DNA from: Eledone cirrhosa | Lineage: Eukaryota | Direction: 5' to 3' | Assembly (NCBI GenBank): GCA_964016885.1 | Contig: OZ024758.1 | Location: forward strand, 6,510,001 to 6,574,000 | DNA length: 64,000 nucleotides | In this document: positions 2,091 through 63,707 of the stretch, one piece after another | Position numbering within the stretch: the first letter of the stretch is position 1 | Layout of the letters: every line of letters begins with the position of its first letter | Position numbers and translations under genes: made by a program | Notes under the pieces: model-generated | Database searches by the model: none | What the model was told of the DNA's origin: nothing | The model's input: only the letters and a program-made list of their open reading frames with translations

Positions 2091-2222
2091 CTTCCTGATA
2101 ATTTCTCCCGAATGAAACAGTTCTAGTCCTGTAGACGCCTTTCTATATTAAATATTTATACTCCGCTTAATATTGAGTACCTTACTTGCTGTGGTTACCC
2201 CCGATTGAACCCAGGATAAACT
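2091..2222 (+). mobile_element. Family A cassette (single arm, core CUGAUAA)
   Basis: Homologous to 48802-48934, including gaaacagttctagtcctgta and ttgagtacc. Ends in (TA)n. Confidence 0.75.
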
Positions 2223-2341
2223 TATATATATATATATATATATGAGAGAGAGAGAGAGAGAGAGGGAGAGAGAGAGAGAAAACACTGGAAGGTAATATCC
2301 ATGGGACGAGTTTGGTATATATATATATATATATATATATA

Positions 2342-2540
2342 TATATTAAAATAACAGATTCAAGTTTAAGCAAAAAATCGGTGTTTTCAACCTTAACGAG
2401 TGAAAGCAGCGATTCTTTGCTTAAACTTTAATCTGTTATTTTAATATATATTTGCTCAACGCGTTTTTACATATATTTTATATATATATTTATCCTTATC
2501 GAGCCCTCTTCGGATTTTAGTCTTCTCATTTATTATTGCT
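2342..2540. repeat. Fold-back cassette in (TA)n; homologous copy at about 11520-11670 (-)
   Basis: attaaaataacagattcaagtttaagcaaa pairs with tttgcttaaactttaatctgttattttaat. The same arm occurs at 11605-11650. Confidence 0.7.
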
Positions 2541-3437
2541 ATATATATATATATATATATATATATATATATAGTAAGATACAGGGAAAGGAGAGAGACA
2601 GAGAAAAGGGAGAGAGGAGGACTGCTATATATCACATGGTGAAATAATCAGAGACATTTGTCAGAGAAATGTAAGTAACTTTGTCATGAAATGAGTGGGA
2701 GATTTTATGCATTATCTTATAACATTGATAATTATTTTTATCTTAGACTTGATACAAATCTACACTATTTTTCTGGAAGGAAAATTCGTATTTAATTCAA
2801 CTCTGTCCCAACAAAATGGAGGTGAAAATTGGTGAACAGCGATAGTGTCAAAATCGCAGCATAATCTCGCAAGTTTTTTTTATTGTGCTTGACACGAAAT
2901 AACATTATTTGCTGAGAAGCCTAAATTCGGTGTAAAATAACTTTAGTATAGACGTTTTTTTTTTTCATAGAATATCTCATTTCTGAGTTGAAGGTGGTAA
3001 GGGTCGTCTTGATTTGATTGTTATAGAGAATTCTAGAGCTGGTTTCCTTCAGCAAAAATGTAGACTAGATTGCTTAATGCAATTATTTATACGTCTGTAT
3101 AATTTCCGTTCTAAGTTCAAATGCTGTTTTGGTCGTTTGTTATTCATATCTCCATATCGATCAAATTGATATCAGAACTAAACAATATTCCATGAGTTTT
3201 ATCTCTCGTCTATAGAAATTGGAAAATATATCAATGTCAGAATATTCCTATATCTACTTCCTTTGAATTATGACATCGTTTTATCCAATACAAAAGTAAT
3301 AAAATAGATGTGTTGTTATTTTTTCAGTCGGTTTTACTCTACTTTGTATTAATAGTCTACGTTATATGTATAAGCATACACACACATACATACATACACA
3401 CATACACACATATATACACATGCTTATACATATAACC

Positions 3438-3620
3438 GTTTCTTCTTTTGGCACAAGGCCAGCAAATACCCAGTGCATTACTGGTACTTTATTTTATCGA
3501 CCCCGTAAGGATGAAATCCTGCCGAGATTAACTTTGCCTTTCATCCTTACAGGATCGATAAAATAAAGTACCAGTAATACACTGGGATAATTTCTGGCCT
3601 TGTGCCAAAAGTAGAAACAG
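3438..3620. mobile_element. Head-to-head inverted pair of SINE 3' halves
   Basis: 3438-3516 (-) and 3516-3620 (+) share cttgtgccaaaag and gataaaataaagtaccagtaat. Confidence 0.75.
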
Positions 3621-3833
3621 TTATATGTATAAGCATGTGTATATATGTGTGTATATGTGTGTATATCTGTGTGTGTGTGTATGTATGTTTACATGTGTGG
3701 GTGTGTGTATGTGTTTGCACGCGCGTGTGTGTGTGTGTGTGTTTGCATGCGTGTGCAAAATATCGAAACTTAAAAAGTACATAAATCTTCCGTCGCTTTC
3801 GACGAAGTATATTTTGGTTGTTTAATCAATAGA

Positions 3834-60583: not shown

Positions 60584-60716
60584 TAGTGTAGCAGAACAGG
60601 TCAGATCTAGAGTCTCTGATATGGTTATCATGAGATAATCTAACAGAACAAGTCAGATCTGGAGTCTCTGATATGGCTATCATATGATAGTCTAGCAGAA
60701 CAGATCAGATCTAGAG
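60584..60716. repeat. About 52-bp tandem repeat x2.5
   Basis: Units of ctgatatggctatcat..gata.tctagcagaaca.gtcagatctagagt. Confidence 0.75.
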
Positions 60717-61111
60717 TAAGCCTCTATTAAATTACAGCTTGTCTCAGAGTAAGTAGTTCATGCAACGATCATCAGTTTAATTAGATGACCTCGGTGTCGT
60801 GAACATCAGTAGACTCACAGATGATTGACTATTAATTCAACAATGGGTTGGCACAAATGCTCCAGTTAGTTGAGAAATCTAAGAGTATGTAAGTGAGGTG
60901 AGCTGCATATATTCTAGCCATTAGTCGGAATAAAATGAATACGTCACCTTCGAAAGATGGCTGACTCACGAAGAAGAAAGAAGAGAATGTTCACACAGAA
61001 TTTTCTGGAGCCCCGGCGAGCATCGAAGCCTGGCGACCGGCCTGTAATAATAGAAATCATCTCACATGTATTTTTGCTTAACTGAAAATTGTTTTAATAT
61101 TATCTCAGGAC

Positions 61112-61331
61112 GGAGGGCGGTGGATTGGCAGTATCAGTAGAGGGTCGGACGCCATGCTTTGCAGCATAGAGTTACGGCCCTTTATGATCTGAGTTCAAAT
61201 CCCGCCGAGGTTAACTTTGCCTTTCATCTTTACGGGGTCGATAAAATAAAGCACGAGTAACGCAGTGGGGTCGATTTAATCGACTTTCCCCTCCTCCAAA
61301 ATTGTTGGCCTTGTGCCTATATAAAAAAACC
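61112..61331 (+). mobile_element. Near full-length tRNA-derived SINE with Deu/Nin-like core (about 20 copies or fragments in the window)
   Basis: A-box-like tggcagtatcagtag, B-box gagttcaaatccc, core gcctttcatc..ggggtcgataaaataaag. 16-bp TSD at 61096-61111 / 61332-61347 (one mismatch). Confidence 0.85.
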
Positions 61332-62980
61332 AATATCATCTCAGGACAAGGACAACTTTTAATCAAGTCCTTATATTTTTATTTTTAATTTTATGAATAA
61401 AACTATATAAATGCTATTTTATTTTTGAATAAAATACCCACCATAGAAATTCAACAGTTGGCTTTTAAATCAACTTTCATATATCTTATGTTCTCTTTTA
61501 CTTTTCGTTTTCCCATTCCTTGTTTTGTGTTTCTCTGCTGCTATTTTTTCTCATTATATTGAACCGAGAGGAGGATGGCAAACAATCCCTGGTACTTTTA
61601 TTATTATGGGTTTGAGGATGCCGAAAGTGATTAGTATTTTTCTGTCCCTTTCTTTTATAAATATTATATTTCACGTTTTACTATTTTCAATTCGTTTCGT
61701 TTCTGACCTTCTTAAATTTTTTTTTTTTAATAAAATTAATACATTAGAAATATTTCAGTATGAATGATGTTTTTTAGATGCCTTTAGCTTCACACAGCTG
61801 CAGTTAACATTGTTGAATTATACCGATTTTTTTAATATTTTTGTTTTTATTTTAATTATTTTTAGTTGTATAATTTATTTCATTTTATATAATTTTTATA
61901 TTTTTATTTTGTATATGGACATGCAAACAATCAAATGCGTTCTTTTTGTTTTCGTTATCTATGATAAATAATCCCAGCAGTTATCTGTTTTTAATTTTAT
62001 TCGATGATTGGAAATGATAATTCGGTGACACGAAATTTGAAAATTTACCTTTAATATGTTCGCACTGTAAAGTGGTTGGTGATAGGAAGGGCATCTAGTC
62101 GTAGAAATCTTACCAAACAAGGGGTTAGGAGGACCCTTCAGTTTGTATCAAAAGATACGACAACTTCTCTGCACTTGATATAACCGTACATAAGGAGGAT
62201 ACAGAAGCCTCGTCCTTTCTAGTATTTACAATGTTTTTGTAAATTTATGAATAGATACTTAGGATGGCCATGGAACATCAATCCTTGTCTTCCCAAATAG
62301 AAACCTACTTCTATAACACAGGTTAGAATTATCATATTGTGTGTATTACTTTCCTTATAAGGTCAAACAAGACATGTTTGTCGTTCAACAATAACATTTT
62401 ATTTTTTAAAAATAGATGTTTGAGCTTTTTGTGCGTTTCATTTTTTGCAACCAATCTCTAATATTTTGACTGTTCGTTTTCACGATTTGCAATGCTTTCG
62501 TTTTCTCTATGTCCAACCTAATTACTTTCTTATTGTTATTACTGGGGTTTTCTATCAAAATATGATAGTTTTTCTATGTGATCTTAACCATCGGCAAATG
62601 TTATTCTCATAGTAAAACGCAATATACAATGGACAATAGCCTAGAACATGATGAAAGTAATATATGTGTGAGTGTTTTATGAGCTGGCTGTGTTGTACCA
62701 GAAGTTTATGAAACAATTGTATTTGTCTTCTTTTTATCAAACAAAGACAGACAAAGATATTTGGATAGAAAACAAATTTGGAATCTAATCTGGCAGACCT
62801 ACTATAAGATTTCATTCTATGATTTGTTATTTCTGTTGGTAAATCGTGAAAGCCAAGTTATTGACATTACACGCTATTGCTGGTTTCAATTAAGTTTCGA
62901 GAACATTTCGATCATTACTGACTACGTTTTGGGAAGCTTTGACAGAATTGTTTTACAGTATTTTATATATATATATATAT

Positions 62981-63707
62981 ATTGGTAAACGGAATAGAAA
63001 ATGCTGACAAATTGTTCACAGTTGAAAAATGGTTTAATTAGGAATAAAAGAGTATTAGTGATTGTATGGGTTAGTATTCAGTTGTGGTTTTAAGTTTTTA
63101 AGTTTTTACCGGTTGCGCATTTCTAAATGCTTTTCAAAAATAATTTTGAGATAGAGTGTCCGTGTTGTTTGCTCTGATCTGATTAGTTTTTGGAATTCTG
63201 CCTGTTTTTATGTTAAAAAAGTGGCTCCAGCGCTACTTTGGTGTTGCAAAAATTCTTGTGGTCAAAACAATTTTGATTGGTCGGTAGAGGTCATGTGAAT
63301 GTAAAAAATTGATTTTGCGCCAAGACTGTTTTTATGTTAAAAAAGTGGCTCCAGCGCTACTTGGTGTTTGCAAAAATTCTTGTGGTCAAAACAATTTTGA
63401 TTGGTCGGTAGAGGTCATGTGAATAAAAAATTGGTTTTGCGCCAAGATTGAGAAATGACTCTTTCACAACAAATATGTGTGTGTGTGTGTGTGTGTGTGT
63501 GTGTGTGTGTGTGTGTGTGTGTGTGTGTGTGTGTGTAGTAAAAACTTAAAAACTTAAAACCACAACTGAATACTAACCCATACAATTACTAATACTCTTT
63601 TATTCCTAATTAAATCATTTTTCAACTGTGAACAATTTGTCAGCATTTTCTATTCCGTTTACCAATATATAATAACTTGTGTGTTACACCTCTATTCTTT
63701 TAACTAT
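62981..63707. mobile_element. PLE-like inverted arms (62981-63109 / 63538-63666) with a variant hammerhead and an internal ~124-bp tandem duplication
   Basis: The arms are reverse complements. Minus strand 63103-63141 reads UUUU-UUGAAAA-GCAU/AUGC-GCAACCGGUA-AAAA-like. 63202-63325 is repeated at 63326-63447. Confidence 0.65.

Follow-up and report, generated by a model that had tools for sequence, protein, structure and literature searches.

What are the short hammerhead ribozyme cassettes that lie among the (TA)n tracts of the Eledone cirrhosa genome, and how did they come to be there? The question is raised by a stretch of 64,000 nucleotides (assembly GCA_964016885.1, contig OZ024758.1, positions 6,510,001 to 6,574,000 of the forward strand), which was analysed as a whole, is hereafter termed the window and is numbered from its first letter. 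A first-pass annotation, made from the letters alone, took the cassettes for a separate class of mini-retroelements. Our analysis points elsewhere: 8 of the 14 families trace to coding Penelope-like elements (PLEs), with a PLE tail and an inverted 5'-truncated arm. Most probably, the cassettes are 3'-terminal pieces, from the pseudo-long terminal repeats (pLTRs), of several endonuclease-containing (EN+) PLE families of the Hydra clade and the Neptune type, sitting in (TA)n, and the insertion pathway set out below is the likeliest explanation of their layout.

The hammerheads themselves were sought with a perfect-core descriptor consisting of CUGANGA, GAAA, an NUH cleavage triplet and three stems, and 20 local dinucleotide shuffles served as the control. 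The window gave 13 matches compared to a shuffle mean of 0.2 (maximum 2). With stem II allowed up to 120 nt, 15 canonical sites were found against a shuffle mean of 0.15 (maximum 1), which is the outcome of the shuffled-sequence check that the first-pass annotation had proposed. All 15 sites possess the type I architecture (CUGANGA, GAAA, NUH and stems I-III, with stem I open). The descriptor inventory recovered each of the 11 motifs previously listed as intact, at the same coordinates and on the same strands, and added the canonical sites 13226-, 27857+, 46250+ and 54909+. Further additions are core variants, namely the U3-A8 pair 46737-/46847+ (shuffle mean 0.35) and the U4A core 11621- (shuffle mean 0.2), as well as decayed or half copies at about 2090, 2400, 13274, 16590-16753, 18255, 20350, 43557, 43740, 47131, 52000 and 54751. 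The earlier figures, some 20 motifs from roughly ten families, hold or fall a little short (14 families are counted here). At its gathering score Rfam returned no hammerhead match in the window; hammerhead families are also absent among the 150 of 317 weak Rfam matches listed, an E-value list dominated by hairpin matches.

The surroundings first described for these motifs stood in part. At least four TA repeats, (TA)4+, follow within 200 nt downstream at 14 of the 15 canonical sites, whereas AATAAA, sought within 40 nt after the cut, occurs at only 4 of the 15 (at 10654 it overlaps the cut). The word array was an overstatement, as the copies are dispersed independent insertions, and the 14 sites with a score of at least 24 that the window holds in its 64 kb amount to only around double the mean density of the sampled genome. 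The end coordinate once given for this population, near 63707, has no descriptor match; an inverted repeat (62976-63109/63538-63671) lies there instead. Near-perfect inverted repeats are also present at 17840-18117, 15403-15561, 50800-50947, 8519-8682 and, as just noted, 62976-63671. A CUGANGA-like box stands at the start of those at 17840 and 15403, which may represent pairs from other families that have decayed; as hammerheads, 15452/15512 and 17839 were excluded, since the core box is present and the complete fold is missing.

Stem covariation around a fixed core, likewise anticipated at first pass, was found in family H, the only family formally tested, whose copies were gathered by homology of their 3' parts and not by the descriptor. 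The perfect core is kept in 54 of 61 homologous 3' parts, and at N7 all four bases occur among 29 aligned copies. Across these 29 sequences, 93% of the stem cells are paired compared to 38-54% in slid controls, and 37 double-sided stem changes were counted against 16 in shuffles, with none of 500 shuffles reaching 37. Family J presents a fixed U4A variant, in which CAGAAGA replaces CUGANGA in nearly all core-holding copies (about 39 family J copies).

The parentage of the cassettes was read from loci fetched elsewhere in the genome (numbered with the prefix L), where long copies carry PLE endonuclease frames and hammerheads on the same strand. In the eight traced families, a reverse transcriptase (RT) with a GIY-YIG endonuclease at the C-terminus lies upstream of the pLTR, and the hammerhead sits within the pLTR, about 0.3-1.6 kb below the end of the frame. 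Families D, B, E and I are joined directly to PLE frames, and families A, G, H and K through sister subfamilies or relatives. In family D, window positions 28010-28180 are 100% identical to an intact open frame of 775 aa in L047, which matches the Pfam domains RVT_1 (E 3e-6) and GIY-YIG (E 3.5e-6). This frame possesses the motifs GxKF, DKG and YLDD, a CX4CXXC linker and a CCHH motif in the endonuclease, which point to the Neptune type. In L252 and L265, copies of family E extend into a comparable endonuclease; L252 shows only a linker-like CXXC and the endonuclease. Judged by motifs, of which the linker is shared with Nematis, families D and E are assigned to the Neptune type. Long copies of family I run into a broken RT and GIY-YIG frame with a CX4CXXC linker (L082, L085, L107 and L108).

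Five of the eight traced families (A, B, G, H and K) belong to the Hydra clade, two (D and E) are Neptune-type and one (I) is unplaced. Family B continues through a pyrimidine-rich untranslated region of about 1 kb into an endonuclease in L112, L113, L119, L124, L125 and L136. In L047 and L056, frames are terminated by arms of family K; where a hammerhead of this family is complete, its core is of the U3-A8 or the C3-A8 kind. A sister of family A (86% identical over 126 nt) terminates a Hydra-clade frame in L317 and L320, and a relative of family H (93%) does so in L175. The sister of family G, termed G2 (87% over 60 nt), has long copies that reach the end of a Hydra-type endonuclease in L345. 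Where the region is seen, these lineages show RWR, DKT, CxCx5C, CxxC and CxH, and no CCHH, and the match of these motifs to the definition of Craig et al. 2021 (PMC8557442) places the five lineages in the Hydra clade. The motifs were read by eye in L312 (RWR and DKT), in L175 and L324 (linker, CxxC and CxH) and in the upstream frame of L047; for families B and G2 they were judged from the endonuclease part only. A Poseidon label for the non-Neptune frames was dropped in favour of Hydra on the same motifs. Homologue search with the L175 frame gave 711 matches, the best named match coming from Argonauta hians.

The copies in the window are listed below by coordinates, strand (a dot where no single strand applies) and content.

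2090-2227 (+): family A pLTR copy with a decayed core (G8 changed)
2339-2556 (.): family J head-to-head pair with lost core, one arm short and one tailed
10506-10762 (+): family B, Hydra-clade PLE end, with an inverted tail at 10506-10586 and a direct arm at 10604-10762
10654-10724 (+): family B hammerhead, predicted cut after 10716
11491-11710 (-): family J tailed arm with a U4A-core hammerhead at 11621-11671; parent frame not found
13215-13403 (.): family A1 head-to-head pair with an intact hammerhead at 13226-13272 (-) and a + arm lacking GAAA
16590-16753 (.): family K palindrome in which the 3' half of a Hydra-clade hammerhead is present twice, the halves meeting within stem II, with no CUGANGA box and with (TA)n inserted at the centre
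18158-18312 (.): family A older pair, core lost
20314-20373 (-): family I fragment, decayed hammerhead
27857-27906 (+): family C hammerhead, predicted cut after 27898; parent not found
28010-28762 (+): family D, Neptune-type PLE 3' end, with the GIY-YIG C-terminus at 28010-28180
Family D landmarks (+): TATA box 28488-28495, 5' pile-up 28519, hammerhead 28555-28593, short end 28717, tail to 28760
39184-39307 (-): hammerhead whose stem II region measures 96 nt; tied weakly, in one case, to a Hydra-type frame (L186)
43553-43615 (+): decayed hammerhead whose cleavage triplet ends in G; its relative in L208 has a normal triplet
43684-43797 (.): family K arm and an inverted tail-only piece
46250-46377 (+): hammerhead with a 99-nt stem II region; parent not found
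46659-46964 (.): head-to-head pair with U3-A8 cores at 46737-46774 (-) and 46847-46884 (+); parent not found
47089-47254 (+): family E, Neptune-type PLE end, decayed core
47368-47532 (+): family F, inverted tail piece and direct arm with a hammerhead at 47424-47513; longer copies of the family have a TATA box and reach no frame
48740-48936 (.): family A1 head-to-head pair, short-arm hammerhead 48750-48798 (-) and tailed-arm hammerhead 48801-48851 (+)
48958-49127 (+): family G unit of fixed 170-nt length flanked by (TA)n tracts, hammerhead 49025-49080
49180-49402 (+): family E copy, hammerhead 49264-49299
51518-51970 (.): family H head-to-head pair, short-arm hammerhead 51561-51626 (-) and tailed-arm hammerhead 51763-51828 (+)
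51981-52173 (.): family K pair, one arm tailed
54632-54757 (-): family A older copy, core C3 changed to U
54909-54950 (+): family I relative, hammerhead with weakened stem I
55339-55551 (+): family I copy, hammerhead 55382-55424

Comparison of these copies with the fetched loci revealed a common anatomy, in which an inverted 5'-truncated copy and an optional tail recur. Two fixed 3' ends, one that includes a tail of 43-100 nt and one that lacks it, recur in every well-sampled family. In family D, 17 arms end at 28717, 17 at 28760 and 1 in between, and 14 of the 35 start at 28519; two 3' ends are likewise found in A, B, H, I, K and G2, with tails of about 70-100 nt. Unpaired arms are a mixture of tailed and short. 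In head-to-head pairs, by contrast with the 70 expected if the arms were independent, 132 of the 141 classifiable pairs combine one tailed and one tail-less arm (p ~1e-29); the remainder comprise 7 pairs with two short arms and 2 with two tailed arms, and 5 more pairs with an intermediate arm were left out. The rule holds where the search query lacked the tail (K 53/58, H 19/19 and B 12/12). Central junctions differ from copy to copy, which indicates that the pairs were formed at insertion.

The 5' ends are concentrated as well. Within 7 nt lie 22 of 33 ends in family D, 83 of 102 in A, 24 of 34 in J and 18 of 55 in B, and the distribution is looser in E, F, H and I. A TATA box stands 31 nt above the edge of the pile-up in D, 29-31 nt above it in F and 29 nt above it in H (one cluster). 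In family A it is found 30 nt above the pile-up in long A relatives and is changed in the one reference used for the pile-up analysis. Most arms of family K stop inside stem II and form palindromes without the CUGANGA box, half-palindromes that would pass as miniature inverted-repeat transposable elements (MITEs) or microRNA-like hairpins. For family G, a reading of the 5' part as an inverted tail was given up, since G2 has similar letters at its start and continues further upstream.

To set the window in its genome, a 3.0-Gb assembly, we sampled 79 ten-kb regions at round coordinates on 27 large contigs, with no formal random draw. These 790 kb hold 95 sites compared to 2.2 in 10 shuffles, with at least one site in 40 of the 79 regions. 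One region, L377, is a tandem array with 15 sites and was excluded, and extrapolation from the 80 sites in the other 78 regions yields about 305,000 dispersed motifs per genome (bootstrap 210,000-410,000), that is, about 3 x 10^5 intact-looking motifs or one per 10 kb. Earlier density figures of 341,000 and 360,000 were replaced once L377 had turned out to be an array. Within 2.2 kb upstream, a PLE reading frame is present at only 8 of the 95 sites; an intact inverted partner accompanies 14 of them, and stem III is perfectly palindromic in 56. (TA)4+ occurs within 200 nt downstream at 38 of 43 sampled sites of all families (first 40 regions), compared to 20% of random positions. The very large, mostly non-coding, (TA)n-associated and PLE-related retroelement population suspected at first pass is borne out by these counts. 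Together, 11 family references span 3.4% of the sampled genome, and the half-hammerhead palindromes of family K are among the commonest units (47 arm matches in 790 kb). The fetched loci contain 401 distinct motifs in 62 clusters, 31 of which have at least two members, a set that is biased to the queried families and includes some false matches.

The excluded region is an observation in its own right. L377 (G000:C28:110000001-110010000) consists of tandem units of about 422 bp with 21 canonical cores in 10 kb, a classic retrozyme array of the type without long terminal repeats (non-LTR), and its unit has dispersed and head-to-head copies in many other loci and none in the window. Another region, L382 (G000:C2:210000001-210010000), has a 522-bp direct duplicate with a hammerhead in each unit, and L208 has a hammerhead with a locally repeated core box.

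How such units might be inserted is suggested by studies of other PLEs; here and below, comparisons refer to the available portions of the texts cited. In vitro, the purified Poseidon PLE of a lizard cuts and extends both strands and is predicted to be a dimer; it starts at two internal sites that bound the tail, takes uncleaved RNA as template and does not depend on hammerhead cleavage (PMC11167929). Promoters are known from pLTRs: a rotifer element has a TATA and initiator-like pair (PMC3846280), and for Drosophila an internal promoter of the TATA-less kind has been described (PMC2377424). We propose that in E. cirrhosa short RNAs containing the hammerhead and the tail would be initiated at a promoter near the 3' end of the element, where in D, A, F and H a TATA box precedes the pile-up by 29-31 nt; the 5' pLTR of tandem transcripts would be an alternative template. 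Probably acting as a dimer, the RT-endonuclease would introduce nicks into the two strands of a (TA)n tract, and both nicked ends would prime reverse transcription, one from each start site, on uncleaved RNA copied to its 5' end. The two complementary DNAs (cDNAs) would then be joined at their 5'-most points. Two long cDNAs would give a pair; if one of them is short, the product would be either a lone unit or one that bears an inverted tail stub. The lopsided head-to-head layout likely records how the elements insert. With their short palindromic stem III, the hammerheads are likely to be weak as monomers; they are likely kept by selection in active parents and not in each copy, and in transcripts of pairs the ribozymes would be trapped in a perfect hairpin.

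Several observations weigh against this reading of the cassettes as PLE ends and against the pathway just described. Six of the 14 families (C, F, J, 39184, 46250 and 46847) have no frame link, apart from the weak case of 39184. A same-subfamily parent was found in none of the 27 loci shown for A1 and in none of the 14 for G, both of which are linked only through the relatives at 86% and 87% identity; rare parents are easily missed, as the genome searches scored 40 candidates each. No complete pLTR-open reading frame-pLTR element was found, nor did any of the eight long D loci examined contain one; a pair of D copies separated by 5.6 kb, at first taken for such an element, proved to be a local duplication without a frame. 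Two of the five family H covariation measures do not exceed shuffles (311/500 and 297/500), and kinship among the sequences inflates the others. The four family I pairs do not obey the pair rule (1 with two tailed arms, 2 with two short arms and 1 unclear). For B, E, I and G2, a search for a TATA box above the pile-up found none, and the J reference could not serve; for F and H, the 7-nt window with the most 5' ends is 6-25 nt below the start that the TATA box would predict. The pile-ups could also be stalls at hairpins, as in K. In favour of the pathway, on the other hand, hammerhead cleavage as the source of the 5' ends was rejected, since insertions start within 2 nt of the cleavage site in 6 of 87 cases compared to 5.4 expected, which is no enrichment, in a test biased by the fact that most loci were fetched with core-containing queries.

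One rival explanation sees in the short copies nothing but full-length PLE RNA truncated at random from its 5' end, with RNA hairpins as hot spots, the inverted arm arising by fold-back of the cDNA and re-joining the target at TA-like microhomology. Family K arms stopping inside stem II, short arms that often end beside TATA-like letters and the broadly spread 5' ends of E and I all speak for it, and self-priming has been proposed for rotifer PLE palindromes (PMC3846280). Fold-back, however, predicts neither that the first arm is nearly always tailed while the second stops where unpaired copies also end, nor that starts lie 29-31 nt below a TATA box in four families; we regard this account as possible but on the unlikely side. 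Somewhat more doubtful is the suggestion that some short units (the young subfamilies A1 and G, with F and J as further candidates) propagate themselves as non-autonomous elements. Every copy would be transcribed afresh, with the upstream (TA)n possibly as TATA box, and mobilised in trans by PLE proteins in the manner of short interspersed elements (SINEs). Family G gives it substance: one start base is shared by 12 of 14 copies and a common 3' end by 13 of 14, none is inverted or long, and all 40 genome matches that were scored show 96-100% identity over nearly the whole length. All 27 A1 loci shown start within about 14 nt of the core, and non-autonomous PLE derivatives have been described (PMC8557442, in Chlamys; preprint 10.64898/2026.07.22.740005). 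Against this, the G query contained both (TA)n ends, which favours full-length matches, and in contigs from two other runs a similar, non-repeat sequence extends beyond the G start on its upstream side, a hint that a longer parent exists. The D start is equally sharp while the D parent is intact, the 40-candidate limit again applies to parents, and A1 junctions differ between copies, so that the pairs are made anew at each insertion. A bolder form of the same suggestion, to which we attach a similarly small probability, is that several hundred thousand self-renewing mini-retroelements arise from pLTR-promoter RNAs, with Hydra or Neptune dimers priming both (TA)n ends at two start sites and (TA)n replacing the lost TATA box, so that lone A1 and G copies would move without a parent of their own.

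Two further explanations fare worse. That the cassettes are monomers shed from tandem non-LTR retrozyme arrays replicating through circular RNA is very improbable: such an array exists in this genome in L377, with dispersed copies of its unit in other loci, but its family has no match in the window, head-to-tail arrays are seen for no window family either in the window or in the fetched loci, the ends of the window families are not set by the cleavage site, and PLE tails and frames are present. Chance motifs in AT-rich, hairpin-rich DNA, or palindromes that are DNA-transposon MITEs inserted at TA, could be suspected from the TA that flanks the units, from several near-perfect palindromes and from the folding of single motifs, most of which is only modestly better than that of shuffles (z 0.2 to -2.3 for 13 motifs), a measure that is uninformative here. 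This idea is refuted by the shuffle controls and the PLE links and retains next to no probability: the scans gave 15 sites against 0.15 in the window and 95 against 2.2 in 790 kb, the core is fixed with N7 free and the stems covary, and the arms are of unequal length with variable centres, unlike MITE terminal repeats.

The PLE reading also fits with known systems, and comparison shows which parts of it are familiar. For the Hydra clade of C-terminal EN+ PLEs, (TA)n targets, inverted arms and a tail often at one end only have been described, and Hydra-1_Obim of Octopus bimaculoides is listed with a hammerhead and a (TA)n target (PMC8557442). The elements found here share with that clade an RWK-like motif and DKT, the CxCx5C linker, CxxC/CxH without CCHH, a canonical hammerhead near the 3' end, insertion into (TA)n and inverted 5'-truncated copies whose tail is often one-sided. 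They differ in number: the source describes one octopus Hydra family, whereas at least five Hydra lineages with different hammerheads and frames about 30-50% mutually identical are present here. By eye, the hammerhead of Hydra-1_Obim is unlike any in the window. Copy numbers of lone pLTRs or pair statistics were not found in the available text of PMC8557442.

Cervera and de la Pena 2014 (PMC4209133) report that one metazoan genome holds PLE hammerheads of many families, with most copies standing alone and "probably related to truncated PLEs". Similar to these, the motifs of E. cirrhosa are of type I, in part form opposite-strand pairs (100-700 bp apart in that study), include the U3-A8 variant and a palindromic stem III, and are expected to have low activity. 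Compared to the minimal motifs of that study, most here keep a stem III of 2-5 bp and some have very long stem II regions, and its counts of about 2,000-9,000 per genome contrast with the roughly 300,000 extrapolated here. On the pathway proposed here, the resemblance to lizard Poseidon (Frangieh et al. 2024, PMC11167929) would extend to two RT start sites bounding an optional tail, the use of both strands, uncleaved RNA and an AT-rich target. In the lizard element, however, the frame starts inside the hammerhead and the tails measure 30-40 nt compared to 43-100 nt here, and different start sites for head-to-head arms are not reported in the available text. Non-LTR retrozymes are likewise non-coding, carry type I hammerheads and are on a scale of 170-400 nt, but form head-to-tail tandems and circular RNA, whereas the window families are lone or head-to-head with PLE-type ends (PMC7229834); Li, Clavereau and Pollet 2026 derive retrozymes from pLTRs (preprint 10.64898/2026.07.22.740005).

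As to cephalopods, a giant squid paper reports 235 Rfam hammerheads, and a 2026 repeat paper on O. vulgaris reports 31 recently active Penelope-like families, with no mention of ribozymes found in its available text; the word "ribozyme" is absent from PMC8967140. No paper was found on octopus hammerhead abundance or the pair rule, and it is quite possible that these families are already contained in Repbase, Dfam or the subscription literature. Among what is in print (PMC4209133; PMC8557442) are hammerheads in PLEs, copies that stand alone or on opposite strands, the tail as an optional part and insertion targeted to (TA)n; the copy scale, the rule of tailed and tail-less arms and the fixed 5' pile-ups below a TATA box were not found in print.

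Apart from the cassettes, the window is rich in (TA)n and holds two exons of a rhodopsin-family G-protein-coupled receptor (GPCR) on the + strand (32759-32860 and 41093-41188), which encode transmembrane segments TM6 and TM7 with NPxxY; their profile matches (E 1e-5 and 3e-4) are below the Pfam cut-off. On account of these exons, at least part of the window is probably intronic, and the only hammerhead between them is antisense. A very abundant repeat of about 180 nt occurs at 3375-3683 (two inverted copies), 4112-4297, 6156-6362 and about 15 more places, and we take it to be probably a tRNA-derived SINE. A minisatellite (20780-22350) comprises 37 copies with a 42-nt period and 96% matches. 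Decayed fragments of long interspersed elements, RTE-like by eye, lie at 56200-57460, 18550-19210, 20600-20740 and 27130-27610, and an assembly gap of 200 N spans 35923-36122.

Altogether, the interest of these cassettes is in their scale and in a quantified insertion footprint, and not in a new class. Invisible to Rfam thresholds, the dispersed motifs, at about 3 x 10^5, outnumber the largest literature count with which we compared them, up to 126,247 hammerhead motifs in the far larger genome of the axolotl (Cervera and de la Pena 2020, PMC7229834). The pair rule, seen in 132 of 141 pairs, and the TATA-spaced starts form a footprint in the genome by which the PLE integration pathway can be put to a direct test; the prediction is that the enzyme halves, working on opposite strands, would each start from a different site. 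The lineage is known for heavy adenosine-to-inosine (A-to-I) editing. In such a lineage, the perfect hairpins formed by the pairs, together with latent self-cleaving motifs in pre-mRNAs, could matter.

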